A stretch of 64,000 nt of DNA from an uncultured Candidatus Peribacteria bacterium (GTDB taxonomy: Bacteria > Patescibacteriota > Gracilibacteria > UBA1369): the NCBI GenBank assembly GCA_964624115.1, contig CAZUXI010000006.1, positions 1,060 to 65,059 on the forward strand, given 5' to 3'. The position numbers and the translations under genes are program-made. Below the pieces are notes generated by a model that worked only from the letters and a program-made list of their open reading frames with translations, had not been told where the DNA came from and did not search any database. Shown piece by piece: positions 14,985 to 64,000 of this stretch; positions within the stretch are counted from its first letter, which is position 1, and every line of letters begins with the position of its first letter.

Positions 14985-15021
14985 GGAGATAAATTTTTAC
15001 CAACGTAAGTGGAAGAAAAAA

Positions 15022-15050
15022 GGCTCAATTCCCAACAAGAGAATCGAGCC
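15022..15050. terminator. Bidirectional intrinsic terminator between convergent genes
   Basis: GGCTCAATTC pairs with GAATCGAGCC (one mismatch). An A-run lies on the left and a T-run on the right. Confidence 0.6.
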
Positions 15051-15070
15051 TTTTTATAATTTCCTAAACT

Positions 15071-15775: not shown

Positions 15776-15833
15776 ATAATATTGGGTTAAATGGTGCAAA
15801 CGGCCCTAAGGCCTCCCATAAATAGATATAAAT

Positions 15834-16292: not shown

Positions 16293-16302
16293 GAAAGAAA
16301 AA

Positions 16303-19879: not shown

Positions 19880-19911
19880 AAGCCCTTCCTTTGTCGGAAG
19901 GGCTTTTTTTT
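19880..19911 (+). terminator. Intrinsic terminator
   Basis: A perfect 10-bp stem, AAGCCCTTCC/GGAAGGGCTT, with a 6-nt loop and a T-run. Confidence 0.85.
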
Positions 19912-19919
19912 GGTATAAT
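19911..19919 (+). promoter_or_regulatory. Candidate extended -10 promoter element (TGGTATAAT)
   Basis: TGnTATAAT sits 24 nt upstream of ATG 19943. Confidence 0.4.
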
Positions 19920-19942
19920 ATCTGGATTATCTCTCAACGCGA

Positions 19943-20974: not shown

Positions 20975-21016
20975 CATGGAAGCTCCAAAGAAAGCAGTTT
21001 TACGAAAAACGAACCT

Positions 21017-22060: not shown

Positions 22061-22114
22061 ATTCAAAAACTCAAGCATCAACCATCAAATAAATTATAAA
22101 TTCCAAGGTATTTA

Positions 22115-22123
22115 TGCTATAAT
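22115..22123 (+). promoter_or_regulatory. Candidate extended -10 promoter element (TGCTATAAT)
   Basis: TGnTATAAT sits 26 nt upstream of ATG 22149. Confidence 0.35.
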
Positions 22124-22148
22124 AGCAAGATAAATTGCACCCTTTTCC

Positions 22149-27128: not shown

Positions 27129-27137
27129 ATTGCCACT

Positions 27138-29582
27138 ATGATGGAACAAAATAATCCACAAAACCCACTGAATTCAGGTGCTGCTTCAGTCCCTCCAGCA
27201 CCAGCGCCAACCCCCGCGCCACAAAGTTCACCTGCAACCCCGGTGAATCCAACTTTTGGCGTTCCTTTAAGTGCTGCTCAACAACCACCTGCCACGCCAG
27301 TCCCTCCAGCACCCATTCAAGCGACCTCAGCACAGCCAGCACCTCAGCCAATCAATAACGTACCAACGCCTGCACCGGTTCCAACCCCAGCTGTTCCCCA
27401 AAATCAACCGATTCAGACACAAGCTCAATCCCTTAATTCTTCTTCTCAATCTTCCCCTTTGCCCGCGCCACGCCCCAACATGAATCAACCCAACCCCAAC
27501 CAACGCCCTGGCCAGGTAATGCGTCCGGGGACAATTCGTAAGCCCATGAATCCGCGTCGACTCATTATCGGATGTTTAGGTTGCAGTGGACTCGCTATTT
27601 TTCTCTTTGTCCTGCTGGTTTTTATCTTTGTGGCCCAAACCAGTGCCACCGGTGAAAATCCAATCGCCCGCTCACTCGGTGTGAATACCGCCAGCTTCAT
27701 CAATACGCTCATCCTGCTCGTAAACCTGATTTTTGGTGCCTTTACCATCGGACTTTTTCTTGCCTCAACCGCAGGTCTTTTCCGGATATTCCTGGCGAGA
27801 AAAGATGACCAGGTTGCCAGAAAAAATGGTATGACTCTCGCCGGAGTATCACTCTTATTAATGCTCGTTGTAGTATTTATCTGGGTAGGAACCTACTTTT
27901 TCTTAAGCTCAAAACGGGTTGCCGTACCGAAAACCACCACCTCAGCCATCGTAACGGTACCTGAAAGTACTCTCGGCCTCACGGCTCCGATTGAAGTGAA
28001 ATTCAGTTCAGAAAATCTTCCCATCAATACCAGAACCTATGACGTTCTTTCGTACCTCTGGAACTTCGGTGACGGTGTAACCTCTACGGTTGCTTCCCCT
28101 TCCAACATGTACGAAGACAAAGGTTCCAACAATGGAAGATACGACGTCACACTCTTGGTGACCAAACGAAATAAACAAACCAACGAAGAGAGTGTGGATA
28201 CCTATACCACCGTCGTCACAATTGCGAATGTGGAGATTAACGCGAGCTTTTCGGTCCAGCCAGAAAATGGTCCCGCCCCTCTTGATGTCAGTTTTGACGC
28301 CTCATCTTCAACAGCGCCCGCCGGACAAATTGTTACCTACGAATGGGATTTTAATAACGATAACGTTTTTAACGACGCGACCGGAGTCACCACTACCCAC
28401 ACCTTTGAACAAGTGGGAAAGTATACGGTAGGACTTCGCGTAACTGACAACACCGGACAGTATAAAATTAAAACCCTCGAAATTAACGTGACCGATGCGG
28501 AAATTCCAGTAGCAGTTATCAATGTCCCAACCACCGATGGGAAATACTACACCGGTTCTTCATATAACTTCGATGCTTCAGCTTCCACATCACCCAATGG
28601 CACGGTACAACTCTACGAATGGGATTTTGGTGATGGAACCGCCAAGGCGAACACCAGAACCGCCACGCACGTCTTCCGAAACCCAGGTGAATATAAAGTT
28701 CTCCTCACGGTGACTGATGACAATAAGGTGAGTTCACAAAGTACCAAAACGTTGAAAGTGGAAAATAAAGAAGCTGCACCGCTGGCCGCAATTACCACCA
28801 TTCCCGCGCCTGAAAAAAACGCCAATTTTATTGCCGGAACCGCTCCGTTTGAGGTGACTTTTGATGGAGCAAAAAGTCAAGACAGCGATAACAATATCGT
28901 TGATTACAAATGGGATTTTGATGGCGATGGCAAAGAAGATGCCGCAGGGAAACAGGTCACCTATATCTATAAGATTTCTGGAAGTTTTAACGCCACCTTA
29001 ACCGTTATTGACGCCCTTGGCAATGAAGGCCAAACCACATTCCCAATTAAGGTTGGATCACAACCGTTACAGGCACGTATAACTGCAGAACCATTTGAAG
29101 GAGTGGCTCCACTGACGGTAACATTTGATGCTGGGGGGTCCTCATATCCAAACGGCCAAATTGTTTCTTATGAGTGGGATTTTGGTGATGGGAGTCCAAA
29201 ACAGGTAAATACCTCAAAATTGGTCTATAAATACACCCAAATTGGAAGTTTTACCGCAAAAGTAACCGCCATTGGCTCTGATAACAGTCGGTCAACCGCA
29301 GAAATACCGGTGAACGTTCGTCCTGTTCCTCTCGCGGCTTGTTTTGAAGTCACCACCGAGCAAGGTCCGGCACCACTGACCGTTGAATTCGACCCCCGTT
29401 GTTCCACAGGTTCCGTAGCAAAATACAGCTGGGATTTTGGTAATAATTCCACCTCACGCACCCGAAAACCAACGCAAACTTTTGACAAACCCGGTTCATA
29501 TCAGGTAACTCTAGAAGTGTCTGACAATCAAAACGTCATTGACACTTTTACCAAAACCATCCTCGTAACCGGTAACATCTAA
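27138..29582 (+). CDS. Membrane protein (814 aa): Pro/Gln-rich N-terminus, a cluster of TM helices, and six PKD-like domains
   Basis: N-terminal 130 aa are P/A/Q-rich. TM segments include GCSGLAIFLFVLLVFIFV. There are six Y.WDFG(D/N).. + G.Y.V.L.V.D units. Confidence 0.8.
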   Translation: MMEQNNPQNPLNSGAASVPPAPAPTPAPQSSPATPVNPTFGVPLSAAQQPPATPVPPAPIQATSAQPAPQPINNVPTPAPVPTPAVPQNQPIQTQAQSLNSSSQSSPLPAPRPNMNQPNPNQRPGQVMRPGTIRKPMNPRRLIIGCLGCSGLAIFLFVLLVFIFVAQTSATGENPIARSLGVNTASFINTLILLVNLIFGAFTIGLFLASTAGLFRIFLARKDDQVARKNGMTLAGVSLLLMLVVVFIWVGTYFFLSSKRVAVPKTTTSAIVTVPESTLGLTAPIEVKFSSENLPINTRTYDVLSYLWNFGDGVTSTVASPSNMYEDKGSNNGRYDVTLLVTKRNKQTNEESVDTYTTVVTIANVEINASFSVQPENGPAPLDVSFDASSSTAPAGQIVTYEWDFNNDNVFNDATGVTTTHTFEQVGKYTVGLRVTDNTGQYKIKTLEINVTDAEIPVAVINVPTTDGKYYTGSSYNFDASASTSPNGTVQLYEWDFGDGTAKANTRTATHVFRNPGEYKVLLTVTDDNKVSSQSTKTLKVENKEAAPLAAITTIPAPEKNANFIAGTAPFEVTFDGAKSQDSDNNIVDYKWDFDGDGKEDAAGKQVTYIYKISGSFNATLTVIDALGNEGQTTFPIKVGSQPLQARITAEPFEGVAPLTVTFDAGGSSYPNGQIVSYEWDFGDGSPKQVNTSKLVYKYTQIGSFTAKVTAIGSDNSRSTAEIPVNVRPVPLAACFEVTTEQGPAPLTVEFDPRCSTGSVAKYSWDFGNNSTSRTRKPTQTFDKPGSYQVTLEVSDNQNVIDTFTKTILVTGNI

Positions 29583-29805: not shown

Positions 29806-29834
29806 TTGACCAAAACCTCAATTTTTGATAAAAT
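29806..29834 (+). promoter_or_regulatory. Candidate sigma70-type promoter (TTGACC, 17 nt, TAAAAT)
   Basis: -35 at 29806-29811 and -10 at 29829-29834, 46 nt before ATG 29880. Confidence 0.45.
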
Positions 29835-29879
29835 ACCAAGATAAATTCTATCCAACTATCAACATAAACACCCACACCC

Positions 29880-32800
29880 ATGCTCGACAACACTCCAAAT
29901 CTTGGTCAGGGAACACCTGAAAACCCTGAACAAAAGCCAGAAATGAACCAAATGCCAGATCCCATGCCACCGTCAGTTCCGCCAGTTGGTACACCAGGTC
30001 CGGAAAAACCCGTTGACCTTGTTGGAAATCCATCAGATGATAAAAAGAAAAAAACTCTTCTTATTGCGGGAGCTGTTGTTGCCATCCTGGGTGTCGTGGG
30101 AGCAGCGGTGTATTTTGGGCAAGGGATGTTGTTTAAAGGGTCAGTGGAAGAAACGTACAAATTAGCTGCACCTGAACTTTGTCCGGATGGAATGTATTTT
30201 GATGAAACAGCAACAAATTCAGGTGTAATTACAGAACCTGCACGAACCGCCTCTGGAAATCTTTTAGAGCTCGGCCTTGGTGTTGCGAATGCACAGTCAA
30301 AAGAGGATGTTGTCACAACCTTCATTGATGAACCAGTTCAAGGAAACACAAATGGTTATCAATCACGTCCACCAACATGTGATCCTGCCAAAGGTGAATC
30401 ATTAAATTTTGAACAAACCGCCTGCGTGGATTGTACTGAAGTTATAAAAATTTACGCAAGCACCACCAATCCACTTGAAAAATCTTACTACGCTGCTCGA
30501 AACAAAATGTGCGTGACCCAAGGAATTACCGGCGGCGGAACTACTCCTGAGAGTGGGACCGGTACACCAACCGGTGATTTCCCTCCTGGTGGTGGGCAGA
30601 CAACTGGTACTCCAGACACAACCGGTACCGGAACAGGAACGTCAACTACGCCCAAAACACCTGTTACTTGTCCAAAAGATTCCGTCAAAGTGAACGTGGG
30701 GGAAGTGAAATCCATGGATACGTTCTTAACGAGCTTAAAGAACGTTACTTCAGATGAAAATCACGTAACCAAAGCAAAAACAGTTGTTTCTCTCTGGGAT
30801 GAACTGAGCAGTCTACCGCAGGACGACCAAGGAATCTGTTTGGACTGTTTATGGTACCAAAAAATTAAAAACTACATGATCACCCTTACGGATGACTTTG
30901 TAGCCCAATATCCTGAACACAAAACGTTATGGGATGCTGCAAAAGCAGATGTTAACGGGAAACTGACCGAAATTAAAAAGAGTCTTGATGACGCCGGGAT
31001 CGCATGTGATACCACCCCAGGGACTGAAATTCCACCAACCCGTGGGGGATCATGTGTACGAATTGACTATTGTGATCCAGACCTCGTTGCAAAACTCTTA
31101 AAAGATCCGGCAAAATATCACCTCAGTCCAAAAACACTCGAACTTCTCAAAACCGAACCAAGAAAATGTGAACGTGTGACCCAGGAAGTTGAATGTAAAG
31201 AGGGAACCGTTCAAATTGATCGAAAAGATCCTGCGTTTAACCTCACCACCGAAGAAAAAGCAACCATTTCGGCAGGTACCGCCGTTCTCAAAAAATATGA
31301 AAGTGACGTCAAAATGGAGGCACTGGTAGAAATTCGTTCCTACGCAAGTGACACCAGTTCAAAAAATGCTGATCAGGTGATGTCAGAAATACAAACGCTC
31401 ACCACATTAAATTCAAACGTATCGGCAGCGCGGACAACAACTGCATTACGGACAGATGCTGTCTCAAACCTGAGAAACGTAGAAACAACACAATGTCTTA
31501 ACTGTGAAGAACTTGATGAACTCTACAAAAAATTTGTAGATCTCTATACTCAACTTCTCGATAAATTTGAAGCGAATAAATCGGTTACCTCTGATCCAGC
31601 AGAATTGAAAAAAATCACCGATGCGGAAACAACCATCAAATCGTACATGGATCGGGTGACGAAAAAAATTGATGCCCTCAAAAAAGAAAATCGTTGTCCC
31701 GTTGAAATTGTTCAATGTACGAACGGGGTTGATCGGTTTCCAACCGACGGCTTTAAAACTATGAGTGATGCGCTCAAACCACTCGATCAACAAGTCCGAA
31801 ATATTGTAGCAAACTACGATGGGCCAAATTCAGAAAGTTCTCAAGTAATCAGAAAAGACGTTCTTATCGAGAAAAATGCTCCTGAGTCATCACTCAATAC
31901 AGCACGCATCAGAACCGATTACGCAGCGGGAATTCAGATGAAAATTTGTGATTGTGATACGCTTGCTCTATTTAAGGAACGTTATGAAAACGAATTGGCG
32001 CTTATGGAGTACGTCTTATCCCAGTTGAAAGCTCAAAACGCTGATGCGGCCATCATTGCCCAAGCTCAAACTGCTTTCGATAAAACGAAAGCCGCGTACG
32101 AAACTTGGAAAGCAACGGCAATAAAAAAACTCAACTGTCCTGAACGTGTGACTGAAATTCCTGTCTGTAAAGACACGACCTATAAATTAACGCCTGAGTT
32201 GAGTTCGGCAGGACAAAAACTTGGAGAAAAATTTGATTCGGTTCCTACTGCAGCTGAGTATCAAAAAGCCAAAACTTCTTGGGATGCGATTGGAAAGAGT
32301 GAAATTATGAAAAAATACACGACTGGCGAGAGTACCAAAACAGGTATGAATGCCCTCTGTCTTAACTGTGAAAGCCTGAAAGAGTTAGAGGCTTACCTCA
32401 ATGCCCAACTGGATAAAGTAAAATCAGAATTACCGGCAAACGACACCGTCATCAGTCCTGCACTTGCTGATTTTAAGTCAGAACTTCAAAAATTCTTTAC
32501 CCAGGCGAAGCGTGATCTCAAGTGTACAACCACGACGACCGTGGTTGAACGTGTTCCTGAACGAACACCGCTCGACACCTGTACCGACATCAAACAACAA
32601 GTGGTCAATAAACTCAACGGTCCTCTTGGTTCAACACGTGATGAAATCAAATCTTTCACTGATTTGGTAACTTCATACTTTGAGAACGACTGTGATAAAC
32701 TGGTTCGTTGTGAAGAAAAAGTAGCGAAAGTTGACTACTATCAAAAGCTTGCCGAAGCCGTAGACCAAACCACTTGGGATTCAGCAACGAAAACAGCAGT

Positions 32801-34307
32801 AAAAAGCGCCTTAACCTCACTCGCCAACAATGCCAAAAGGGATTATGAAAACACTTGTATGTTTAAGTGTCCCGTGGACATGAAAGAAACACCGGCTGAA
32901 CCACCTTCTGACAAACCATTTATCGATGAAACAGGGATGAAGAGTTTGGCAACCGATACCATCGCTTTTGTCCCTGGTATTCTTTCTGCCCATGCTGCTG
33001 TTGATCCGACCGATCTCTTCAACCTAACCACAAAACCAACGGAAGTGGGTATTCCCGCTGCGGTTGATCCCGCCAGTTGTCCAACACCCGAGCCACCAAA
33101 AGTAACTTGTGTTGCCCTTCCAACCGAAGCAAACCTGGGCCAAGATGTGAAATTTGAAGCAAACGTCACCAATTACACCGGAACAGATCTCACCTACACT
33201 TGGACCAATACTGGTTCAGTAAATTCAGGCAAAAGTATTACCACGAAATTTGACAAAACTGGATTCCAGGCCTCTGGAGTAAAAGTAACCAAAACCGATG
33301 GAACCGTGGTCGGTGAAGCCCGCTGTCCGGTGACCATTAAACCTCCAGTTCTCACCTGTAATCCACCAGACGCAGTTCAAGTTGGTCAATCTTCCAACTT
33401 TACCACTACACTCACCGGTCTTTCTCAAGACCAGATGACCGATGTGAAATACGTTTGGAGTGGTGATGTAACCCCTGAACAGGCAGAAGCCAATAAAACC
33501 AAATCAAACCTCAATCTCACCTATACCACCTCCGGATCAAAAACCGTAAAAGTTTCTGCTGTTCGTGATGGTTACTGGCAATCGAACGAAGCACTTTGTT
33601 CAACACGAATCACTGATACACCACCACGACGAGGTGAAAATCCAAGTCTCTCCTTGAGTTGTATTGGTACCCCAGGCTCAGTAAAAGCCGGTGAAGCCAT
33701 TACCTGGAAAGCAACCCTTACCGGTACCGACCCACAAAACGTTCCTTTTACCTGGTCTGGTAGTGAAAACCTGAGTGTGACCGGAAATGGAAAAACCAGC
33801 GTTACAAAAATCTACAACCAAACCAACAGTCAGGCTCAAGCAACGGTGAAAGTGGTCGTAAACAACGTCACCCTGCAAGTAACTTGTAATAACGTGGTGA
33901 TTGAGGAACCAACCGATCGTGAAATTCCACCCGGTGAAACCGATGATGATACACCTCCAAGAAGCGGTGGAAATGACGATGGAACAAGTACACTAACCCA
34001 AAATATTCCTGGCGACAACGATGATGACACCCCGCCACGTCGAACAGAAGTGACAAACAATAACCCCCCACGTGAAACATCTTCGAATAATCCTGGAGGT
34101 GACACCGAAACCAAAACCGGCATCTTTGGTGACAGCGATTCAACGGGAAGCACAACCGTCCGCCCTGCTGCTCCGGAAGGCGATATTACCAAAACCCCAG
34201 AAATTACCCCAACCGGTCCTGAAATGATCATCTACCTCTTTGGTGCCGCCGGCTCACAAGCTATTGTTTTCAGAAAAAAAATCGTGAAAAAACTTTTGAA
34301 AAAATAA
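29880..34307 (+). CDS. Giant envelope protein (1475 aa): N-terminal TM anchor, a Gly/Thr/Pro linker, repeated Cys-containing helical modules, three Ig-like repeats, an acidic/Pro tail, and a C-terminal TM with a basic tail
   Basis: TM LLIAGAVVAILGVVGAAVYF. CxxC motifs recur (CVDC, CLDC, CLNC twice, CDC). Three units of about 90 aa begin (V/L)(T/S)C. The C-terminus reads PTGPEMIIYLFGAAGSQAIVFRKKIVKKLLKK. Confidence 0.75.
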   Translation: MLDNTPNLGQGTPENPEQKPEMNQMPDPMPPSVPPVGTPGPEKPVDLVGNPSDDKKKKTLLIAGAVVAILGVVGAAVYFGQGMLFKGSVEETYKLAAPELCPDGMYFDETATNSGVITEPARTASGNLLELGLGVANAQSKEDVVTTFIDEPVQGNTNGYQSRPPTCDPAKGESLNFEQTACVDCTEVIKIYASTTNPLEKSYYAARNKMCVTQGITGGGTTPESGTGTPTGDFPPGGGQTTGTPDTTGTGTGTSTTPKTPVTCPKDSVKVNVGEVKSMDTFLTSLKNVTSDENHVTKAKTVVSLWDELSSLPQDDQGICLDCLWYQKIKNYMITLTDDFVAQYPEHKTLWDAAKADVNGKLTEIKKSLDDAGIACDTTPGTEIPPTRGGSCVRIDYCDPDLVAKLLKDPAKYHLSPKTLELLKTEPRKCERVTQEVECKEGTVQIDRKDPAFNLTTEEKATISAGTAVLKKYESDVKMEALVEIRSYASDTSSKNADQVMSEIQTLTTLNSNVSAARTTTALRTDAVSNLRNVETTQCLNCEELDELYKKFVDLYTQLLDKFEANKSVTSDPAELKKITDAETTIKSYMDRVTKKIDALKKENRCPVEIVQCTNGVDRFPTDGFKTMSDALKPLDQQVRNIVANYDGPNSESSQVIRKDVLIEKNAPESSLNTARIRTDYAAGIQMKICDCDTLALFKERYENELALMEYVLSQLKAQNADAAIIAQAQTAFDKTKAAYETWKATAIKKLNCPERVTEIPVCKDTTYKLTPELSSAGQKLGEKFDSVPTAAEYQKAKTSWDAIGKSEIMKKYTTGESTKTGMNALCLNCESLKELEAYLNAQLDKVKSELPANDTVISPALADFKSELQKFFTQAKRDLKCTTTTTVVERVPERTPLDTCTDIKQQVVNKLNGPLGSTRDEIKSFTDLVTSYFENDCDKLVRCEEKVAKVDYYQKLAEAVDQTTWDSATKTAVKSALTSLANNAKRDYENTCMFKCPVDMKETPAEPPSDKPFIDETGMKSLATDTIAFVPGILSAHAAVDPTDLFNLTTKPTEVGIPAAVDPASCPTPEPPKVTCVALPTEANLGQDVKFEANVTNYTGTDLTYTWTNTGSVNSGKSITTKFDKTGFQASGVKVTKTDGTVVGEARCPVTIKPPVLTCNPPDAVQVGQSSNFTTTLTGLSQDQMTDVKYVWSGDVTPEQAEANKTKSNLNLTYTTSGSKTVKVSAVRDGYWQSNEALCSTRITDTPPRRGENPSLSLSCIGTPGSVKAGEAITWKATLTGTDPQNVPFTWSGSENLSVTGNGKTSVTKIYNQTNSQAQATVKVVVNNVTLQVTCNNVVIEEPTDREIPPGETDDDTPPRSGGNDDGTSTLTQNIPGDNDDDTPPRRTEVTNNNPPRETSSNNPGGDTETKTGIFGDSDSTGSTTVRPAAPEGDITKTPEITPTGPEMIIYLFGAAGSQAIVFRKKIVKKLLKK

Positions 34308-50924: not shown

Positions 50925-51067
50925 GTTGGCTGAAAATTTAACTGAGAACATATCTTTACATTATAGCAAAAAATGCCCGATCTGTAACCCGCAAGCGGAC
51001 AGTTTTTACTTGCCTCGTGGGCAAAATTTGGTTAATATCACCTGGCTTTAACAGTAATAAAAGAACT

Positions 51068-54262: not shown

Positions 54263-54880
54263 CTACTTGGCGGCGCGTGAGACCGCGCCGCCGAAGATGA
54301 ACATGGTGAGAAGGATGAGGCCCATGGTCGCCCACGGTGCCTCGAGGAGGCCGTTGATCAGGCCTCCAATCGCCTTGATGATCAGGAAGCCGATCATCAA
54401 GATGTTGGGGATCGCCACGATGGCGATCTTACCTTCCTCCTCTTCACTGACTAGCCCCTTCAAGAAAAGCAAAGCTCCGGGGATTATATTGCAGAGGATG
54501 ACGGCCCAGGTGAGCCCCAGGTCGGGCGCCCTGAGGGTGGTGATGGCCAAGACGCCAAACCCCACAATGAGGGCCCCCTCGACCGGCTGCTCCGCCCGCC
54601 CAAAGAAGATGCCGGGGATCAAAAAAATGATCAAGAGTGGCACGCCTGCGATGAGACAGGCAACAATGAACCACGCTTGCGCGTAGCCCAACTGCTGTCC
54701 CACCTTGATCACATGGTGTTCGATCCTCCCTCCAGGGCTGGTGACAGGTGCCACCTCCCCGGTCCGTGTGGACCCGATCGGGTTGGGCGAATCGTGATAA
54801 TTCGCCCCACACCCCACCATCCCAAACAGTCCACAGACGACCAAAACAACAAAAACAAGTTTCTTGACGAGATTGGACAT
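54263..54880 (-). CDS. GC-rich ORFan: putative lipoprotein with several TM helices (205 aa from ATG 54880)
   Basis: AAGGAG lies 7 nt upstream of the ATG. Lipobox-like FGMVGC, then 4 or 5 hydrophobic helices. Line 54301-54360 has 37/60 G+C by hand count. Confidence 0.65.
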   Translation of the reverse strand: MSNLVKKLVFVVLVVCGLFGMVGCGANYHDSPNPIGSTRTGEVAPVTSPGGRIEHHVIKVGQQLGYAQAWFIVACLIAGVPLLIIFLIPGIFFGRAEQPVEGALIVGFGVLAITTLRAPDLGLTWAVILCNIIPGALLFLKGLVSEEEEGKIAIVAIPNILMIGFLIIKAIGGLINGLLEAPWATMGLILLTMFIFGGAVSRAAK

Positions 54881-54909
54881 GATGAGTCTCCTTTGTATCC
54901 TCAACCGTT

Positions 54910-54961
54910 GAGGACATTTCAAGCTACCTTTTACCATCAAAAGGCAATTTGAAATGTCCTC
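54910..54961 (-). promoter_or_regulatory. Strong hairpin in the 5' leader of the GC-rich gene
   Basis: Perfect 13-bp arms, GAGGACATTTCAA (54910-54922) / TTGAAATGTCCTC (54949-54961), plus an inner 6-bp stem CCTTTT/AAAAGG. An adjacent alternative stem CCTCAA/TTGAGG (54899-54913) shares nucleotides with it. Confidence 0.5.
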
Positions 54962-55167
54962 GTAATATATACCCATGAAACAGAGAATCGGTTTGTACTT
55001 GAGCAAATCTGGCTGGGAAATCCAGGAGAAATCTCAGGCACAAACCATTCTCTATTAAGATTTCAAAGAGCAAGAACCGAAATAGTACTATAATTTAAGA
55101 AAAAATCAAGTTTTTTGACCAAAAAGCTCGAGGGAAAGCAAAAAAAATAGCATCGGAAAATAACGAT

Positions 55168-55293: not shown

Positions 55294-57768
55294 TTAAATA
55301 ATTTTGTCTCCTGATTTTACGCCTTTAACATAATCTTCACATTTCACCTGATAGTAGGCTAATAAACTATCGGGCCAAGCTTTAGGTGAAACTAAACTTC
55401 CATCATTAGTCCCTGGCTTTAAACCAGGTATTTCACTACCTTTCGAATCCTTTAGTCCCGCAAAGTATGACAAGGCATCTGGATCCTGCAAAATCGCAAG
55501 TCTCACCTTATAGCCTAAACTTTTTCTCATTTGCCATTGGAGTGCTTCATAGGCGTCGACATTACCCTCTTTCCAAAACTTCAAAGTATTGAGAATACTT
55601 GAATCAATCTTTGCAGCTGCGTTTTTTTCGATATCCTTAATTTCAGATAACTTAGGAGCTAAGATCCCTTCATAATTGAATAAATTTCTTTTTATTCCCG
55701 AAAGCGCCTTCAAACACTCCTCCTTATCCCCATCATCCTCCATCACCTTCTTCATCACCGTACTATCCAAAAGGTTCCGTCCTTTATACTTCATCGTAAA
55801 CCAATCCAAAATCTGTTGCGCTTCTGTTCCCTGGGTATGATCCAAGGCAAATCGCACCCGGAGCTGCTCCTGCTGCCACGGTGCAAAGCCGGTATAAACC
55901 AGATTTTCATTGATAAAATAATCGAGTCCAGCGCCCTCTTTTCGCTCTTCTATGGCTGGAATTCCGGTAGTAAGAGCACCATATTCAATGGTCCCTTGTG
56001 CCGGTACACGGAAGTACACTTGGAGTTTTTTTCCATCAGCAATATAAACATTCCCTGCCACTTTCAAGAGTTTTTGCAGTTGATCATCAGGTAGAGCCTT
56101 ATAGTCTGGATGAGTCTTGAGAATACGAGTTTTAACATCCTCAATCGCTTTTCCAAGGGCTTCCTGCAAACCTGCATCGCTGCCCGATTTGCTTAAATCA
56201 ACGGTCTGGGCTGTCGTCATATAAAGGCTATCTTGGGCAACTGAACTTATTTTAATAGTATTCGGTGCAACGGTACCGAGTCCTTTAAACGCCTTTGCCG
56301 AATCCTTACTATAATTCTGATCCACGTGAGCAGGTAAATCCGCCTCTTGAATCACACTAAACTTATTTTTTCCACTTCCCAGGCTTTCAATCCATTTTTT
56401 GACCTCTTCGGTTGTTCCTGGTTTTCCCCAAACTTTTTGGTAAAGCCATGGACTCAAACCGGTAAGCCCTTCGCCCGCCCACATCCAGTTCCAACCACGG
56501 GTGACCTTATCTTCCACCTGATGTTCAACTCGATCAGGAAAAGAGGCATCAACTTTAAGATAATCTTTTGAAATCATTTGTTCAGCAACCAGATCCACAA
56601 AGGTTCGGCTGGTTCGGCCTGAAGTCGAATAATGCTGCTCAAGCTTCGTAAGCCAGGCGAGCATTTTTGTTTTATCCTGAGCCTCACTACCCGCCATTTT
56701 TTTGAAAAACTTATCAAGTCCCTGATACATTTTATCTGCTGGCAAACCTTTTTGATCCACTCCCTTGACCGTAATTTTCCCACTTCCATCAGCCAAAGCC
56801 TGTTTATATTTTCGAATAACCTCGGTCGCTGGTTGATCTCCAAGCTTCACAATACAATCACGAATTGCTGCCGCCTGAGCTTCATCCGCCTGAAACTGTT
56901 CTTTCCAAAAGGCCGGATTTCCAGCCGTAGAACTAAAACCTTCACCCAACATGGTAAGAGCAGATTTACCGGTGAAAAGTTTGGTTAAATAGTTTCCTCC
57001 AACTCCGGCGAGGCCAATTCCTATAATGTATTTCCCCGCAACTTTGAGTTGATCACGAACTTTCGATACACTTTCATTTTTAGTGGTCGCCACATAGATA
57101 CTAATCGCCAAGAGAGAAGCGAGTGCAGCAAACTTCTCCTTGGAGTCCATATGATCAAAATTCTTTTTGAGATCACGAAACACCTCTTTTACATCACTCA
57201 TGATGGATTTTGCTTCGGTCTCTTTCTTAAACCCTGCCCGTTCCTGGGTAAATTTAAGTCGATATTCCATCGATTTTTCTGCATTCTGACGGATCGCGCG
57301 ATAGGTCAAATAAGCCTTTAAGAGCTCTTCACTCTTCACCGACCGTTTATTTTTTGCGTCCAATGGATTCGTTCCATCGGGAATAATAAGGAGCAGATAT
57401 TTATTGACCGTACTGAGAAACGCCGCGCTACTCGGAGCTTCAAAAACAGAAGTATCAAAACCATCCTGCTTGCTGTCGGTCACGAAGGTCTTGGCACTAT
57501 TGAGGACTTTTGCCATTTCAACTTCACCAACCGCTTTTCCCTGCTCAGCAATATCTAGTGCCGTTCCAAACTTAAAGTTCTCTTTAAAATACTTTTGGGA
57601 AGTCTTTAAATCAGCGCCCATAAACTGATGATCCTGCAAATACGACCGAATACGCTCAGGCTCAAGGGTTTCTTGATCTGGAGTTTTTTCGCCCAAGGCA
57701 TTTTTTTTATCCAGTTTCTGGTATTCAGAGACCAAATCCGCCGCTTTATAATCGATTCCACCTGCCAT
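55294..57768 (-). CDS. ORFan protein (824 aa) with two internal hydrophobic segments; last gene of the five-gene operon
   Basis: No catalytic or known motif, and no signal peptide. Hydrophobic stretches are FAALASLLAISIYVATT and YIIGIGLAGVGGNYLTKLF. Confidence 0.65.
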   Translation of the reverse strand: MAGGIDYKAADLVSEYQKLDKKNALGEKTPDQETLEPERIRSYLQDHQFMGADLKTSQKYFKENFKFGTALDIAEQGKAVGEVEMAKVLNSAKTFVTDSKQDGFDTSVFEAPSSAAFLSTVNKYLLLIIPDGTNPLDAKNKRSVKSEELLKAYLTYRAIRQNAEKSMEYRLKFTQERAGFKKETEAKSIMSDVKEVFRDLKKNFDHMDSKEKFAALASLLAISIYVATTKNESVSKVRDQLKVAGKYIIGIGLAGVGGNYLTKLFTGKSALTMLGEGFSSTAGNPAFWKEQFQADEAQAAAIRDCIVKLGDQPATEVIRKYKQALADGSGKITVKGVDQKGLPADKMYQGLDKFFKKMAGSEAQDKTKMLAWLTKLEQHYSTSGRTSRTFVDLVAEQMISKDYLKVDASFPDRVEHQVEDKVTRGWNWMWAGEGLTGLSPWLYQKVWGKPGTTEEVKKWIESLGSGKNKFSVIQEADLPAHVDQNYSKDSAKAFKGLGTVAPNTIKISSVAQDSLYMTTAQTVDLSKSGSDAGLQEALGKAIEDVKTRILKTHPDYKALPDDQLQKLLKVAGNVYIADGKKLQVYFRVPAQGTIEYGALTTGIPAIEERKEGAGLDYFINENLVYTGFAPWQQEQLRVRFALDHTQGTEAQQILDWFTMKYKGRNLLDSTVMKKVMEDDGDKEECLKALSGIKRNLFNYEGILAPKLSEIKDIEKNAAAKIDSSILNTLKFWKEGNVDAYEALQWQMRKSLGYKVRLAILQDPDALSYFAGLKDSKGSEIPGLKPGTNDGSLVSPKAWPDSLLAYYQVKCEDYVKGVKSGDKII

Positions 57769-57826
57769 TTTGACTTACACAATTGATAAAATCTTCTTAT
57801 TATACCAAAAAATCAGCAAAAACGCA

Positions 57827-58240
57827 CTATTTCTGGAGTTTTTTCCTCAATTCCTCAATCTGATTCGTCTGTTGCATCCCTCGGTGCTCCTCTAAATCCT
57901 TCACCGCCGTGTTTTCGGCCAGCGCGACCTCATCCTTATAAGCTTTCATCACTGCGGCGTACACCTCCGGCTGTTTTTCCGCCATTTCCCGTAAATCCAC
58001 CATAAACGTCTGATTTCGGTTCTGAAACTCAGCTCGGAGGGTTTCTAAAGCCTGGCGAGCTTTCTCCAATTGCTCCTGATTATGGGCCTGAGCTTCTTCA
58101 ATTTCAGAGAGCAGGCGTTGGATCTCCTCAGCATCAAGTTCGGGATTATTCAGCTGATTGGTCCAGTACTCCTTGCGCTCAGCAGAAAAGTCACTGTGAA
58201 GGAGAAGTTGTAAAAGCTCGGGGAAGAGAGAAGTATTCAT
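57827..58240 (-). CDS. Small acidic coiled-coil protein (137 aa)
   Basis: Glu/Gln-rich helical sequence, separated by 20 nt and 58 nt from its neighbours. Confidence 0.6.
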   Translation of the reverse strand: MNTSLFPELLQLLLHSDFSAERKEYWTNQLNNPELDAEEIQRLLSEIEEAQAHNQEQLEKARQALETLRAEFQNRNQTFMVDLREMAEKQPEVYAAVMKAYKDEVALAENTAVKDLEEHRGMQQTNQIEELRKKLQK

Positions 58241-58260
58241 AAAATTGAGAAGTGAAAAAA

Positions 58261-60276
58261 TTACGCGACTTTGTTCCCCATGAGAGGAATTTTTCTACTA
58301 CTTTTCTTTTTCTTGTTAAGCTCTTTCTGAATGGTATCAAAAGTGACTTCATCAAGTTCCTGAAAGCTTTTTCCCCGATATTTATCATTCATCGTGAAAT
58401 ACTCAAAAACCTTTTGAATTTGAGGAATTTTAGGAGTCTTTTGAACAAAAAGCTTGGTTCGTTCAAATGCCAGCGCTAAATCGTTTGCTTGAGGTTTTAA
58501 GAGTCGCTGGGTGTCAAAAACTACTTTCGATTTTTGAATCCCTTGAAAAAAGAAAGAAAAAATCGTTTGGTACCCGGAATTTTTTAAAAACGCCGAAAGG
58601 TCGGCAGTATTCACCTTCTGTTTACGCATCAGTTTAGCCCATTCTTGAACCTCATTTTCTGGCACAGTAACGCGGGTAAGAGTTCTTAACCGGCCACCAA
58701 GATCTTTCAATTCAGCTTCAGTAAGTTGAGCTTCAGGAATCTTTGGAGGCGCTTCGTTTGCCAGGAATTTTTCAAAATTCGTATCAAAATCATCGAAAGA
58801 AGTGTGTCCCCATTTTTTTGCAAAATCTTTCAATTTATCTTCCAGGTCCGTGAGTCCCTTCTTCTGAACATCAATCGCATAACCCAGTAGGGAAGCAAGA
58901 TGTTCTTTTCGGAAACTGACCCGTTTTTCTGCTGTTAAAACCTCTTTTCCAGAAGGAAGTTTTCCTTGGAATAAAAACTGGAGAACTTTGACCCGTACAT
59001 CCGTATTGAGATTAACTTTCCCGTCATTAAGTTCAGTAAGAAATGCCGGCTGTTTTTGTCGTAACACCTTAATATAAGCATCAATTTCCCCCTGATCCAT
59101 TTTCTGCCCGGAAATTTCCAGAAAAAACCGTTGGGAAATTGCGGCTTCACGTGCCTTTTCTTTGGCAGAAACCGGTTCTTTATATTCAGGTGAAGTCGTT
59201 GCCGCAGACCGATGTTCAATTCCTAAAGTTTCATCCATAAAGTAACTGAGATCCTGAAGTCCCGTCTCCTTACTAAAAGCTCCAATTTGACTGCGAAGAG
59301 TAGCAACTTCATGTTCAAACTCTTCTGGATACATCGTAGCCTTTTGTTCTTTCAGAAGTTTTACCTGATCCCCAAATGCCTGGTTATAAACTTCCCGTCC
59401 CTTTTCACGAATCTCCTCAAGTTGTTGTTGAACATTCGCAATAATTTTTCGATTTTTTTCGAGTTGGGAACCTTTTTCTCGTAACTCTTTTTTCGCAACT
59501 TTTAAGGCTTCATTACGTCCCTGTTCAGTAATGCTGTTGAGTTTAAAAGCTTCCGCCGCACTTTTTGCCGCAGTTGCCACGAGTGAATCTCTTCCACTCA
59601 CAAGAACAGAAGCGGTACCACCTCTCGCCGCCACCTTACTTTCATGAATCTTTTTCGCAAGTTCGTACATCTGAGTATAAGATTTTTCACTCGCGACTAA
59701 TCGGGCCACTTCAGCTTCTTTTCCCTTAATATCTCCTTCAAGTTTTTCCGTGTCGGTAACAAGCTTATCAAAATCATCAGCGGTGAACCGAAAATCCATC
59801 AGTCTTCGCGCCGTCATTCCAGCACCAACTCCTGCAAGAATTGAACCGGTTGCCACGCCAACACCAATCGCCGCAGGCAAAGCTGCATACCGAAGAAGTT
59901 TTTTCCCCATGGCTGCCGCACTTCCTTTCAACCCAACCGCCGTAACACTTTCATCCAGCTTAAACTCATTGGAAACACCCGCGGGAACATATTTCCCTGA
60001 CACCTGGGTAATCTGACCTTTATATTTATCCATAATTTCAGCCTCCCGGGTATCACGAGCTTTTTGCTGCATTTCTGCGACACGCCCATTCACAAGTTTG
60101 GTAAACTTGGCGAGATCCGTCTGAAAGAGCTGTTCCTGGGTATGCATCCGCTTGATGATTTCATCCACATCCGCATCGGGACTCAGGGGCCGAACAATCC
60201 TGCGGGCCGTTTCATCAACCGCAGCTTCCAGATAGCGTTGCTCGACATCATTATTGTTGGAATTTGGTGTATTCAT
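58261..60276 (-). CDS. ORFan protein (671 aa) with an internal Gly/Ala-rich hydrophobic hairpin-like segment and coiled-coil regions
   Basis: Hydrophobic segment LLRYAALPAAIGVGVATGSILAGVGAGMTA. No known motif. Confidence 0.65.
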   Translation of the reverse strand: MNTPNSNNNDVEQRYLEAAVDETARRIVRPLSPDADVDEIIKRMHTQEQLFQTDLAKFTKLVNGRVAEMQQKARDTREAEIMDKYKGQITQVSGKYVPAGVSNEFKLDESVTAVGLKGSAAAMGKKLLRYAALPAAIGVGVATGSILAGVGAGMTARRLMDFRFTADDFDKLVTDTEKLEGDIKGKEAEVARLVASEKSYTQMYELAKKIHESKVAARGGTASVLVSGRDSLVATAAKSAAEAFKLNSITEQGRNEALKVAKKELREKGSQLEKNRKIIANVQQQLEEIREKGREVYNQAFGDQVKLLKEQKATMYPEEFEHEVATLRSQIGAFSKETGLQDLSYFMDETLGIEHRSAATTSPEYKEPVSAKEKAREAAISQRFFLEISGQKMDQGEIDAYIKVLRQKQPAFLTELNDGKVNLNTDVRVKVLQFLFQGKLPSGKEVLTAEKRVSFRKEHLASLLGYAIDVQKKGLTDLEDKLKDFAKKWGHTSFDDFDTNFEKFLANEAPPKIPEAQLTEAELKDLGGRLRTLTRVTVPENEVQEWAKLMRKQKVNTADLSAFLKNSGYQTIFSFFFQGIQKSKVVFDTQRLLKPQANDLALAFERTKLFVQKTPKIPQIQKVFEYFTMNDKYRGKSFQELDEVTFDTIQKELNKKKKSSRKIPLMGNKVA

Positions 60277-60289
60277 AAAAAGATATCAA

Positions 60290-60640
60290 TTAACGTGTGG
60301 AAAGGAGACGATCAATTTCTTGAGCGTCATAAATAAGTTCTTCATAAAGTGACTGAATCTCTCGCTCAATTCGTTCTTTAAGTCCAGGAATTTGTGGTGC
60401 AATCATCATAATTGCGTCCAGTTCATCAATCTCTTGATGATCCAATAAAATTCGTTCAAACATATCCAGTTCTTTGTCCATAAAGCTATCAATCACCGTA
60501 TCCATCACTCGTTGTGACAACCTCATAACAATGCCAAGTTTAAGCTCTTCAGCACTTTCCGAAGTTTTATCCTGAACCTTCAAGGCATCCAAAACATCAT
60601 TGACGAACTCCTCATATTTGAAATAACGAACTTGTGACAT
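60290..60640 (-). CDS. Small acidic helical protein (116 aa)
   Basis: Asp/Glu-rich, with 13-nt and 16-nt gaps to its neighbours. Confidence 0.6.
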   Translation of the reverse strand: MSQVRYFKYEEFVNDVLDALKVQDKTSESAEELKLGIVMRLSQRVMDTVIDSFMDKELDMFERILLDHQEIDELDAIMMIAPQIPGLKERIEREIQSLYEELIYDAQEIDRLLSTR

Positions 60641-60656
60641 AAAAAAAATTTAATAA

Positions 60657-63578
60657 TTACGAAGAAGTAGGGGCATCTGGGGGATTACTTTTCCACCAAC
60701 TGCCTCTAAGTTTAGAAGAAACCCAATTCAGGACACGTCCAGGTGCACGATAAACATATTTAATCGGGTCAACGATGAAGGTTTCACCCAACGGTTTGAG
60801 TCCACGATTCCAAAGTTTATTGACCACATTAGCCCCACCTTCATACACAAATCCGGTCCCTCCACGAATCTTTCCCCAAGCACTGCCTGCAACCCGTTTG
60901 GTCATGTCATAGGTTTCATAGGCTTGAACTGCTGAACTTAAGACTGAAGCAGCCGTCATCAATCCTTCACTGCTTAAATAATCCTGGGCTTTTTTCCCTT
61001 TCATATTGTTGGCTTTGATGTACTGATAGGCTTGCTTTAACTTGTCGAAATATTTGTCCTTCAAAACATCTTTTGCAAACTCCCGTTTCCATTCGGCCAT
61101 CTCGGAAGCATTATTTCCCAGAAGCTCTAAAATGCCCCGAACCTCGTTTCGATCAGCCTGTTGATCATCAAGAATTCTTTGGAGAAAGAGAGCGTTTCGA
61201 TCACCTTCCATTCCGCGCACGGTTTCCGCGTATCGACCGGTTCTTAACTCGCGTTTAACAATCTGCAAGTTTTTAATAATCGAACGCATACTCTTCACGT
61301 CCTTGTCGTAGAGTTCCACTTTCCCCCCGTCATTAAGAAGTTCAAAAGATTCCAAGATTTGGGTCAGTTTTTCTTCAAACTCTTTCAACTTGGCTTCAGG
61401 AATTTTATTTTTCGCAATAAAGTCACGTGCCTCACTCAAAGTGGCATCAGGGGGTAAATCTTTAAAGACATAGAGTGACTTATCAAATCCAGAAACATAA
61501 GTAATAACATCCTGTGCTTTATAAACATTTCGTTTCGCAAAATTGGCTAAAAACCACTTTTTAAACCGGTTCAGACGTCGTGATCCTAAAGTCTCGGCCC
61601 CCAGCCGTTCGCTGTGTTCACGGTTTTCAGCACGCGCTAAACGAATTCCATGTTCAGCTTCATCCACCTGTTCCAGCATCGTCTTAAACGCATTAATTTT
61701 CCGGCTTTCAGGATTGGTATTTCCACGTCGTTCAAAATCCGTTTCATTGAGCATAAACAGAAGTTGTCGGGTGGTAATTTTTTCCCGCTTTCGGAAAAGG
61801 GGAATAAACTCATTATTTATTTCCCGAGTCATATTAGACATCTGGGTATTGGTAAACGTGTTCAAATGAACTTGAAAATCTGAAAATGGATTAGGTCCAC
61901 CTCGCGGTGGACGCGGTCCCGCAACAAGAGGAATAACCGGTTCAGTTTGTCCAAATAATTGTTCTTCAGTAGATTCTCCAGGCGCAAAAGCCACCGCCTG
62001 ATAAGTAACAAAATTCGGAACAGGATTCGCGGGAGTCTGTCCCGTAAGGGTCACCACCAGCTCATTTCGTGTTTGCCGATAGTTTTTTTCCAGATTATTA
62101 ATCTCTGCCTGGAGTCGTGTTTTTTCTTTATCCGTGGCATTAATCTGCGCCACCGTTTCTCGGTAGCCAGTATCAATCACCCCACCGCCAGGAACAGCAG
62201 CCGGAGGAGGTAACCCGGCGAGCGTCCTTCGTAAGTTATAGAGATTCGCTCCCGAAGTATCCGCATCAGTATAAAGTTTTGATAAGTTACGGTGCATTTC
62301 GGCCACATTTCGTGTCAATTCCTGAATACGTTCCACCTGCTGAAGTTCCGGTGAAGGTTCCTGCCCTGCCTGTCGGGTCTCCACCACCGGCGCTAAGCGT
62401 CCACGAATAAGCATAAGGACTTCACGAAGTCGTTCTGGCGTTCGATTGAAATTTGGTTGTGCCGGATCGTTCCGGTTTTCCGCATACTCCTCTAAGTATT
62501 TAATCAAAGCACTCGCATCCACAGAGTTTTCAATCGTATAAAAACTATCATCCACCAGAATCTGATCAATAAGTTCACGAATCGTGGTATTCGGTGCAGC
62601 GCCAGGGGGCAGAGGAATAACCCGTAACCGTTCCAAAACCTGTTGAAGCCTTCGATGATCATAAACCATCGTCATATTCTGGTCCCGACGTTCTTCGAGT
62701 TCAACCGATCGCATTTCAATCAGTCGATCCAGAGGTGTTGCCGGTGGTTCCGGTGGCATCGTTGGATCCACCAGGCCGATTGGGGGTTGTTGAAAAATTA
62801 AACCACCACCCGGATTCATCACATTTGCCCGAAGCTGTCGCAACTGGTGAGCGGTAGCATTGCTGAGTTGTAATGCCTGTGGATTCACTCCTGCAGGTGC
62901 CCCCGCGGGAAATACTACTCCCAATGCAATCAAATACATCTGAATTTGAAGCTGTTGGGCAGCATTGAGCGGAGCCAAAACATCATTCGCCAATCGCAGT
63001 CGAATGGCTTCATGTTGAAGATTTGGTCCTCCAACAAAATTGCGTACCGTACCCAAAACCCCAGCTGCTGGATTTTGGAGGCCGTAGAGCTCTTCCATCC
63101 GTCGACCAACCGCATCACCATTTTCCCTAAAAATACCAATAATTGACCGTAATCCACTCCATCCTTTCAGAGCAATTTTTCCCAAAGTACCTCGGCGTTG
63201 CCGTTCCAAACTCATCTCTCGTGCCACACTGCTCCGAAGTGCATGCTGAACCCGTAAATCCATCACTTTTTCTTCAGCGGGACGATTGGGATCATCATAC
63301 CGGCCAATCGCATTATGAATCGCTTCATTCGTTCCCATCCAGATGTTCGTCACCACTTGATTGCCTAAATCCATTGCCCCTTCATACTCTTTGCGCGGCT
63401 GCCGTTCCTGACGCACCATTTCACTGCTTTGCCCATGCAAAAAATGCTGCTGGTCCTGGAGCGGTTCAGACCGGTCTTTTTTAGGAACAAACCATATTAA
63501 GCGCGAATTAGAAATAACCGCATTGTCCTGCTGTTTTTTTTGAGGGACGTGCCGGGAATTTCGCCAAAAATCACACAT
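60657..63578 (-). CDS. ORFan protein (about 973 aa from ATG 63578; the ORF opens at TTG 63599); first gene of the five-gene operon
   Basis: No known motif. Pro-rich stretches and one hydrophobic segment (MYLIALGVVFPAGAPAGV). The start codon is uncertain. Confidence 0.6.
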   Translation of the reverse strand: MCDFWRNSRHVPQKKQQDNAVISNSRLIWFVPKKDRSEPLQDQQHFLHGQSSEMVRQERQPRKEYEGAMDLGNQVVTNIWMGTNEAIHNAIGRYDDPNRPAEEKVMDLRVQHALRSSVAREMSLERQRRGTLGKIALKGWSGLRSIIGIFRENGDAVGRRMEELYGLQNPAAGVLGTVRNFVGGPNLQHEAIRLRLANDVLAPLNAAQQLQIQMYLIALGVVFPAGAPAGVNPQALQLSNATAHQLRQLRANVMNPGGGLIFQQPPIGLVDPTMPPEPPATPLDRLIEMRSVELEERRDQNMTMVYDHRRLQQVLERLRVIPLPPGAAPNTTIRELIDQILVDDSFYTIENSVDASALIKYLEEYAENRNDPAQPNFNRTPERLREVLMLIRGRLAPVVETRQAGQEPSPELQQVERIQELTRNVAEMHRNLSKLYTDADTSGANLYNLRRTLAGLPPPAAVPGGGVIDTGYRETVAQINATDKEKTRLQAEINNLEKNYRQTRNELVVTLTGQTPANPVPNFVTYQAVAFAPGESTEEQLFGQTEPVIPLVAGPRPPRGGPNPFSDFQVHLNTFTNTQMSNMTREINNEFIPLFRKREKITTRQLLFMLNETDFERRGNTNPESRKINAFKTMLEQVDEAEHGIRLARAENREHSERLGAETLGSRRLNRFKKWFLANFAKRNVYKAQDVITYVSGFDKSLYVFKDLPPDATLSEARDFIAKNKIPEAKLKEFEEKLTQILESFELLNDGGKVELYDKDVKSMRSIIKNLQIVKRELRTGRYAETVRGMEGDRNALFLQRILDDQQADRNEVRGILELLGNNASEMAEWKREFAKDVLKDKYFDKLKQAYQYIKANNMKGKKAQDYLSSEGLMTAASVLSSAVQAYETYDMTKRVAGSAWGKIRGGTGFVYEGGANVVNKLWNRGLKPLGETFIVDPIKYVYRAPGRVLNWVSSKLRGSWWKSNPPDAPTSS

Positions 63579-63722
63579 ATTGAGAATAAAATCCCTCAAT
63601 TATACCATAAAAACGCATCTCCGAGAAATGACATATCCACCTTTTCCTTTCATGACCCGTTGCACCGAAAAACCATCAATGTTAGCATGACCGGGTAAAA
63701 ATTCCTTTTATCAAAGAAAACG

Positions 63723-64000
63723 ATGAACATCACTGTGAGTAACCCATCAAAATCTGAGATCACTCTCACCATCGAATTAACCGAAGAACAAACCGAAAAA
63801 TATCTCAATCAAGCGGCCGCGGAAGTGGCGAAAATGGTCAAAATTCCCGGTTTTAGACCTGGAAAAGCACCTCGAGAAGTTCTCGAAAAACATGTCCGCC
63901 CAGAAGCCCTTGATTCACACATGGTCGATATCGCCCTCCCTCCAACCTACTCTGAGGCGATTCTCAAAGAAAAAATTCAGGCGATTTCCCGTCCAAAAAT
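63723..64000 (+). CDS. tig: Trigger factor, 3'-truncated by the window edge
   Basis: MNITVSNPSKSEITLTIELTEEQ...IPGFRPGKAPREVLEK is a canonical trigger factor N-terminal domain. The reading frame is open to nt 64000. Confidence 0.85.
   Translation, partial: MNITVSNPSKSEITLTIELTEEQTEKYLNQAAAEVAKMVKIPGFRPGKAPREVLEKHVRPEALDSHMVDIALPPTYSEAILKEKIQAISRPK

Follow-up and report, generated by a model that had tools for sequence, protein, structure and literature searches.

We describe a cluster of five genes, here called A to E, in a 64,000-nucleotide (nt) stretch of DNA (hereafter the window) from an uncultured Candidatus Peribacteria bacterium (assembly GCA_964624115.1, contig CAZUXI010000006.1). 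The cluster is vertically inherited and occupies one fixed position among housekeeping genes (tig, which encodes trigger factor, L19, RNase HII, and L27) rather than lying on a genomic island. A, B, and E are its core, and C and D are an accessory pair. Since none of the defining features of the systems we compared it with were found, and since DUF5663, a family matched by one relative of B, is functionally uninformative, the cluster therefore belongs to no known kind. Our tentative reading is that it encodes a lineage-specific multi-protein assembly on the cytoplasmic face of the membrane in Peregrinibacteria-type bacteria of the Candidate Phyla Radiation (CPR). To our knowledge, most CPR genes have no known function, and the interaction of Peregrinibacteria with other cells is uncharacterised. 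Among CPR genomes, conserved clusters without known function are common. This one offers structural and enrichment-culture work something concrete to aim at: every related locus that we retrieved has it, and it is notable for the unmatched predicted folds of A and E, its basic/acidic protein pairs, the hairpin signature of E, and an A-B module that varies in one pair of strains.

Gene content and genomic position

The five open reading frames (ORFs) all lie on the minus strand, separated by 16, 13, 20, and 58 nt. The same-strand layout, the gaps, and the approximate sizes (980, 116, 671, 137, and 824 amino acids, aa) given in a first-pass annotation of this DNA agree exactly with the ORF list of the window. 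The cluster and its boundaries are as follows:

63599-60657, minus strand: gene A, 980 aa from the TTG at 63599, or 973 aa from the ATG at 63578 (60657..63578)
60640-60290, minus strand: gene B, 116 aa, acidic, core member
60276-58261, minus strand: gene C, 671 aa, basic, accessory member
58240-57827, minus strand: gene D, 137 aa, acidic, accessory partner of C
57768-55294, minus strand: gene E, 824 aa, core member, multi-domain
63726..64000, plus strand: 5' end of tig (identified by translation), divergent, the upstream boundary of the cluster
55222-55204, minus strand: terminator-like hairpin, 72 nt past the E stop codon, seen in a consensus scan alone

All ORFs of the window can be read with genetic code 11, and a scan of start-codon contexts showed that Shine-Dalgarno sequences are absent from the genes of this genome. 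Because the TTG at 63599 overlaps a promoter-like -10 element, the ATG at 63578 (codon 8) is more likely to be the start of A than the annotated TTG. Terminator-like sites in the region, the hairpin after E among them, did not exceed chance in number in the consensus scan. For two closer pairs of loci, the proportion of nonsynonymous differences (pN, 0.11-0.31) is far under that of synonymous differences (pS, 0.63-0.85) in all five genes; the synonymous rate (dS) is saturated, so that the ratio dN/dS is meaningless and the comparison of pN with pS alone is usable. With homologues for each gene and pN so far below pS, all five are real, constrained coding sequences.

The first-pass annotation had called these genes ORFans, a label that fails. 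A full HMMER scan of 1.84 billion cluster representatives returned 62 homologues of protein E at E-value <= 1e-3, 25 of them at E-value < 1e-30. The best share ~29-34% identity over nearly the full length (top match, E-value = 5e-93), and the most distant cover only residues ~147-430. A word-index protein search with E, with C, and with a profile of the E family returned the query alone. These "no homologue" results for E and C are unreliable, false negatives from proteins rich in Lys, Glu, and Leu, and in fast-evolving lineages a gene should not be called an "ORFan" on the strength of the word-index search, the faster of the two (query only versus 62 by HMMER). A scan of genome contigs with C and a metagenome scan with A gave no match, and searching genome contigs with the tig fragment brought up relatives at <=42% identity only, with no synteny.

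From the contigs of the E homologues and a metagenome scan, we obtained 14 non-redundant loci including the window (relatives are denoted by L numbers), across which orthologues of A-E were assigned by local jackhmmer over all locus ORFs. All five proteins have orthologues in related loci. Homologues of A, B, and E are present in every locus that covers the position, so that co-conservation, the lack of which the first-pass annotation had named as grounds for rejection, is seen for A, B, and E together in all 14 loci; its claim of a multi-component unit gains from the conservation of the block as a unit in relatives. C and D occur in 7 of the 14 (the window, L007, L009, L015, L017, L020, and L021), and never one without the other. 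There are no middle genes in L013, L023, and L024, which have A-B-E only. Elsewhere, the middle of the cluster holds a His/Asp-rich protein of 196-203 aa (L011 and L012), a 589-aa coiled-coil protein that gives an ATG16-like coiled-coil match (L016), or proteins of 327, 778, and 64 aa (L014). None of these alternative middle proteins has a detectable relation to C, and those of L014 and L016, which are coiled-coil proteins, were rejected as distant C homologues on negative hhalign results. Smaller differences are an extra small gene between B and C in L007, L009, and L017, absent from the window, and a B-C gap of 226-385 nt in L020 and L021 with no clear gene inside. L023 and L015 carry a divergent two-gene insert directly upstream of A, encoding a TPR-containing protein of 850-890 aa and a protein of 334-352 aa; in L023 the insert sits between tig and A.

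Wherever a contig reaches far enough, the cluster is found in the same position, with L19 and the divergent tig upstream and RNase HII before these in most loci. The divergent orientation of tig and A is seen in L007, L008, L011-L014, and L016. On the 3' side, Peptidase_Mx is usual, with a small membrane protein encoded ahead of it in some loci; then come L27, an M23 peptidase, and HhH-GPD. The neighbourhood in the window agrees with the gene order around the cluster in its relatives, which are labelled Candidatus Peregrinibacteria or Candidatus Gracilibacteria in NCBI. A genomic island at tRNA-His was considered and rejected, as the 3' end of the tRNA points away from the cluster and no integrase was found.

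The first-pass annotation had also proposed a single five-gene operon, which is doubtful given that a conserved promoter-like element of its own precedes E, within the 58-nt gap. The pattern TGnTATAAT-N4-AGAT, preceded by a T-run, occurs seven times in the window versus 0.24 times expected by chance. A pattern scan placed the copies at:

7364-7380, minus strand
19911-19927, plus strand
22115-22131, plus strand
29826-29842, plus strand
50952-50968, minus strand
57791-57807 (57791..57807), minus strand: in the gap between D and E, TGGTATAAT AAGA AGAT, an exact pattern match
63591-63607 (63591..63607), minus strand: before A, TGGTATAAT + N4 + GGAT, with a T-run ahead

An equivalent element precedes the E homologue in 14 of the 15 other loci examined, and most related loci have the same element ahead of their A homologue. 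In every case the widest gap of the cluster is the one before E (~40-130 nt). Because of these conserved elements before A and before E, together with the largest gap standing before E, A-B-(C-D) and E are probably promoted separately, with read-through from D to E possible. The copy at 50952-50968 ends 1 nt ahead of the ATG of the M23 peptidase gene, which suggests that the transcript of this gene is leaderless.

Proteins of the cluster and known systems

Profile searches of Pfam, NCBIfam, PHROG, PADLOC, and PDB sequences gave no significant match for any of A-E, with A, C, and E each lacking a Pfam or PDB match. The first-pass annotation, which had recognised no motif in these proteins, was thus right in this respect, and the homology to well-known housekeeping families that it had listed as a possible objection was not found in these libraries. 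The proteins do share a pattern of charge. B has an isoelectric point (pI) of 4.4 (family range 4.3-5.2) and D of 4.8 (4.4-4.8), which bears out their earlier description as acidic; the composition of both (Pro plus Gly ~6%) is the observation that bears on their putative helical or coiled-coil-like nature. A has a pI of 9.2 (8.0-9.8), C of 9.2 (6.6-9.2), and E of 8.6 in the window (5.0-8.7). By these values, a basic large protein is paired with an acidic small one, A with B and C with D, across all loci, as the first-pass annotation had supposed from the window. It was also correct that the large proteins lack signal peptides, as A, C, and E have no N-terminal hydrophobic segment.

Homologues of A were found in all 13 other non-redundant loci at 17-33% identity, and the family aligns over its whole length. 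An AlphaFold2 (AF2) model of A from an 11-sequence alignment is all-helical with disordered ends and long helices at residues 410-455 and 470-512 (mean predicted local distance difference test score, pLDDT, 68.5; predicted template modelling score, pTM, 0.62), and Foldseek found no PDB match to it (best E-value 1.1). The C-terminal region of the family is rich in Trp, Phe, Lys, and Gly throughout. In L007, L009, L013, L017, and L020 the C-terminus resembles a transmembrane segment (Kyte-Doolittle 1.44-1.66), and is often followed by a Gly/His-rich tail. More generally, His-rich low-complexity stretches (for example GHGGGHGG...HH tails and HDEHGEHGEKHDEGHDEDHG) recur in the cluster proteins of relatives and may bind metal; the window versions are without them. 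They are located at:

L009, 3473-3910
L011, 9291-9902
L012, 9285-9875
C-terminal tails of A homologues in L007, L009, L011, L012, L017, and L020

The model of E, from a 30-sequence alignment, has a mean pLDDT of 77.7. A confident helical N-terminal domain (residues 10-180) ends in a 49-residue helix, and is followed by a low-confidence stretch (183-280) and a confident C-terminal part (285-824) in which a small alpha/beta subdomain (~475-600) lies between a helical region and a helical end. Foldseek returned no match in the PDB (best E-value 0.71) or in BFVD (best E-value 0.016, probability 0.09). A and E are thus predicted, on the strength of these models, to have novel folds. The low-confidence stretch of E contains the most distinctive feature of the family, a hydrophobic Gly-rich hairpin, which we list here together with the hydrophobic insertion of C:

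56959..57150, minus strand: hairpin of E, aa ~207-270, with a signature conserved in homologues
59809..59898, minus strand: Gly/Ala-rich hydrophobic insertion in C, aa 127-156 (Kyte-Doolittle 19-residue maximum 1.76)

The hairpin signature consists of NFxxMxGxEK, a hydrophobic helix, an S-x-NE-V-K loop, a Gly-rich hydrophobic helix, and KLFTGK. Close homologues retain it, as do 9 of the 12 others that we compared, several of which are distant, and it falls inside the stretch (~147-430) that the most distant homologues still match. Its pLDDT is below 50, and no other long region of low confidence separates two confidently folded parts of the model. The lobes are ~15-17 residues long, and their Kyte-Doolittle maximum over 19 residues is 1.3 in the window and <=1.72 in relatives. 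The first-pass annotation had reported internal hydrophobic segments in all three large proteins. The segments it quoted do exist and the pair in E is conserved, while the stretch in A is not conserved in the family and that in C is unique to the window, its place being a gap in 5 of 6 orthologues and a polar insert in L015.

C has orthologues in 6 other non-redundant loci at 20-25% identity, and orthologues of D occur only where C is present. A short C-terminal motif shared by C and E had been taken as a hint of distant paralogy; the motif WFT..YK is conserved in the E family and not in the C family, and BLASTP and hhalign gave negative results for the two proteins. The same two methods showed no relationship among A, C, and E, and none between B and D, so that paralogy was rejected in both cases. 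A short (L/F)FTGK is found in each family (as KLFTGK in E, and as FLFTGKL and FFFxGKF in C); at this length it cannot be told from chance. B is the best-conserved protein of the cluster, with homologues in all loci at 23-48% identity. One of 14 members of its family matches Pfam DUF5663 (PF18908) at E-value = 4.8e-5; the window's B has no match at E-value <= 1, so any link to DUF5663 is transitive, through the 23-48% identity within the family. DUF5663 comprises small bacterial proteins without assigned function, similar in size to B (~120 aa). The literature searched makes no mention of it, and the link carries no functional or mechanistic information.

The closest likeness in layout is to secretion substrates and their chaperones. 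In translocators and class II chaperones of type III secretion systems (T3SS; IpaB/IpgC), and in VirE2/VirE1 of type IV secretion systems (T4SS), a large, often basic protein likewise stands beside a small acidic partner, and one large protein likewise has two hydrophobic segments. Unlike these pairs, the cluster is without a TPR or CesT-type signature, has no adjoining apparatus, and keeps a fixed position in the core genome; two of its three hydrophobic features are not conserved. Neither B, D, nor their homologues matched TPR, CesD, SycD, LcrH, or another chaperone family in Pfam and NCBIfam, and no T3SS apparatus gene was found among the scanned ORFs of the window (64 kb, not every ORF scanned) or adjoining the cluster in any locus. 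E recalls the chlamydial Inc proteins and their bilobed hydrophobic domain in that two hydrophobic stretches lie close together. An Inc-like arrangement of two ~20-residue lobes, a short loop, and a domain of 40-60 residues is not what E presents: its lobes are ~15-17 residues of marginal hydropathy, a conserved charged loop of ~15-20 residues lies between them, and they occupy a central position in an 824-aa protein, flanked on both sides by large folded domains. No sequence relationship to Inc proteins was found. As for the WXG100 and LXG-Lap proteins of type VII secretion systems, the only relevant match of D is to DUF3958 at E-value = 0.19, amid many coiled-coil chance matches, and alignments of B and D contain no conserved WXG motif.

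Prophage, defence, and toxin readings were rejected, with no support from PHROG, PADLOC, or BFVD. The A family aligns end to end, with no variable C-terminal domain of the polymorphic toxin/immunity kind and no toxin domain in Pfam. PADLOC yielded only short matches at E-values of ~1e-3 to unrelated models (JukA, HamB, PDC-M18A). The best PHROG match (E-value = 0.0012) is to a family of unknown function, the neighbours of the cluster are housekeeping genes, and comparison of the E model with phage tape-measure proteins in BFVD gave Foldseek probabilities <= 0.09. Another kind of comparison is with DivIVA/Scy/FilP-type scaffolds and the terminal-organelle proteins of Mycoplasma, which, like the cluster proteins, are large, helical, and cytoplasmic, lack enzymatic motifs, contain Pro-rich and long-helix regions, and are lineage-specific and fast-evolving. 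No homology of the cluster proteins to either group was detected, and the A model is compact and helical (pTM 0.62) rather than an extended filament-forming coiled coil; the resemblance is one of analogy only.

Possible roles of the cluster

In the membrane-face assembly that we tentatively favour, B would bind A and D would bind C, with the small acidic partner serving as an assembly factor, adaptor, or stabiliser. The Gly-rich helical hairpin of E would anchor this protein in the membrane, leaving its two large domains cytoplasmic, and A would associate with the membrane via its aromatic/basic C-terminal region, which in several relatives appears hydrophobic enough for a tail anchor. The assembly might be an envelope or shape scaffold, an attachment structure, or something else. 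The fixed tig-A-B-...-E position, the charge complementarity, the lack of an export signal, the conserved hairpin of E, the core and accessory make-up, the C-terminus of the A family, the constraint on all five genes, the AF2 models of A and E, and the separate promoter-like elements support this reading, and a membrane-associated scaffold, which the first-pass annotation had offered as an alternative, fits the data.

Several observations weigh against it. The hydrophobic segments of the cluster are marginal as membrane helices (Kyte-Doolittle mostly < 1.6) and could instead be buried helices or partner-binding sites, and the window's own A C-terminus is neither transmembrane-like nor His-rich. 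Synteny extends over the whole neighbourhood in the clade, which makes adjacency weak evidence of a functional link. No known family or fold favours any particular function in the library, PDB, or Foldseek searches. The cluster proteins also diverge about twice as fast as their neighbours: against the same relatives, the flanking genes share 68-76% (L27), 43-53% (M23), 45-56% (Peptidase_Mx), and 42-56% (tig N-terminus) identity with the window, versus 21-30% for A, C, D, and E and 24-51% for B. Such divergence would also fit a role in host interaction or conflict, as would the variation between L023 and L024, two loci from the same metagenome (Ga0315275). Over the compared stretch (L023 6418-10886 and L024 1-4562), nucleotide identity at the 5' end of tig is 96%, and protein identity is 98% for E, 64% for B, and 34% for A. 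Nucleotide identity leaps from ~50-70% to 90-99% within the B-E intergenic region, and the 3' end of A is better conserved than the rest of the gene. Judged from this one pair, with one contig short, A-B behaves as a recombination-bounded variable cassette between L023 and L024.

A bolder version, which we consider distinctly less probable, would have A, B, and E, with or without C and D, form an undescribed membrane-associated machine, found only in Peregrinibacteria-type CPR bacteria and made of proteins with new folds, in which A-B is swapped or diversified between co-occurring strains owing to its part in contact with host cells (attachment or feeding) or with phages. If so, the machine would be a strain-specific determinant of which hosts these episymbionts can live on. 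The cluster would gain in importance if A-B turned out to vary recurrently, as a module, at strain level, or if the complexes and membrane localisation were confirmed.

The first-pass annotation had thought foremost of host-directed effectors with small chaperones. On this account, A, C, and E would be exported non-classically, the hairpin of E would enter a target membrane, and B and D would keep their partners export-competent. The layout of large and small acidic proteins with its conserved charge pairing, the twofold divergence relative to flanking genes, and the very different A-B alleles of near-identical co-occurring strains are compatible with it, as are the T4SS-pilin-like genes elsewhere in the window and the view that CPR bacteria live on hosts (PMC4736985). 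We nevertheless regard it as unlikely, given that no secretion chaperone or effector family was matched in Pfam or NCBIfam, no secretion signal was seen, and no secretion ATPase or apparatus gene adjoins the cluster in any locus. In addition, the cluster is single-copy in a fixed place among housekeeping genes with no island, pN far below pS gives no sign of pervasive positive selection, and the hydrophobic lobes are short and weak.

Slightly less likely again is a housekeeping complex of the cytoplasm with a role in protein synthesis or folding, acting on ribosomes or nascent chains, with the hydrophobic segments buried or used to bind partners. In its favour are the unvarying place of the cluster, in all loci next to trigger factor and close to ribosomal-protein genes, the apparently single copy per locus with vertical inheritance, and a weak, sub-significance likeness of part of E to eS24 (Foldseek probability 0.25-0.44). 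Ribosome partners usually evolve slowly, however, whereas identities here are 21-30% against 68-76% for L27 and 42-56% for tig; the eS24 matches are not significant, and regional synteny suffices to explain the neighbours.

That same synteny, which spans the whole 20-kb neighbourhood, raises the prospect that A-E are not one unit at all and are five unrelated lineage-specific genes, adjacent only through the conserved gene order of the clade. The separate promoter-like element of E and the variable middle of the cluster point the same way. We find this improbable, because A-B and C-D keep their tight spacing and charge complementarity, C never occurs without D, and A, B, and E stay together though the middle genes and the tig-A spacer have been replaced. 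Least probable of all is a conflict system, with large toxins and small acidic immunity proteins or with anti-phage defence: toxin-immunity pairs have the same layout of a large protein and then a small acidic one, and the A-B cassette differs strongly between two otherwise near-identical co-occurring strains, but PADLOC gave no significant match (best E-value ~1e-3, over short stretches), Pfam no toxin domain, and the surroundings no mobile-element genes, and the full-length alignment of A with the more conserved 3' end in L023/L024 is the reverse of what polymorphic toxins show.

Other features of the window

Genes for nucleotide synthesis and surface layers (S-layers) are reported features of Peregrinibacteria (PMC4736985), and the window also encodes SLH-domain proteins and purine-synthesis enzymes. 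Features outside the cluster include:

214-2154 and 18599-19855, plus strand: two SLH-domain proteins, paralogous in their SLH regions, one with a FlgD-Ig domain
19943-29582, plus strand: run of paralogous T4SS-pilin genes (PF18895/TrbC), with a 1659-aa protein and an 814-aa neighbour with many PKD domains
29880-34307, plus strand: large ORF without a Pfam match, 1475 aa
38898-41009, minus strand: large ORF without a Pfam match, 703 aa
51017-51427, plus strand: ribosomal protein L27, with a Lys/Ala-rich C-terminal extension of ~30-45 aa
54263-55006, minus strand: multi-pass membrane protein, likely start near 54877, after a 288-nt gap following E

The 1475-aa ORF sits behind one copy of the promoter-like motif. 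The Lys/Ala-rich extension of L27 is absent from the L27 proteins of relatives (85-95 aa). Because MAHKK is the usual start of L27, the annotated GTG start in the window is probably too far upstream. In L013, a few kb downstream of the cluster, positions 15005-16350 hold a reverse-transcriptase fragment and a bAvd gene; reverse transcriptase and bAvd are components of diversity-generating retroelements. The membrane protein at 54263-55006 has an N-terminus that resembles a lipoprotein signal (LFGMVGC), and its homologues lie 3' of E in L007, L009, and L019.

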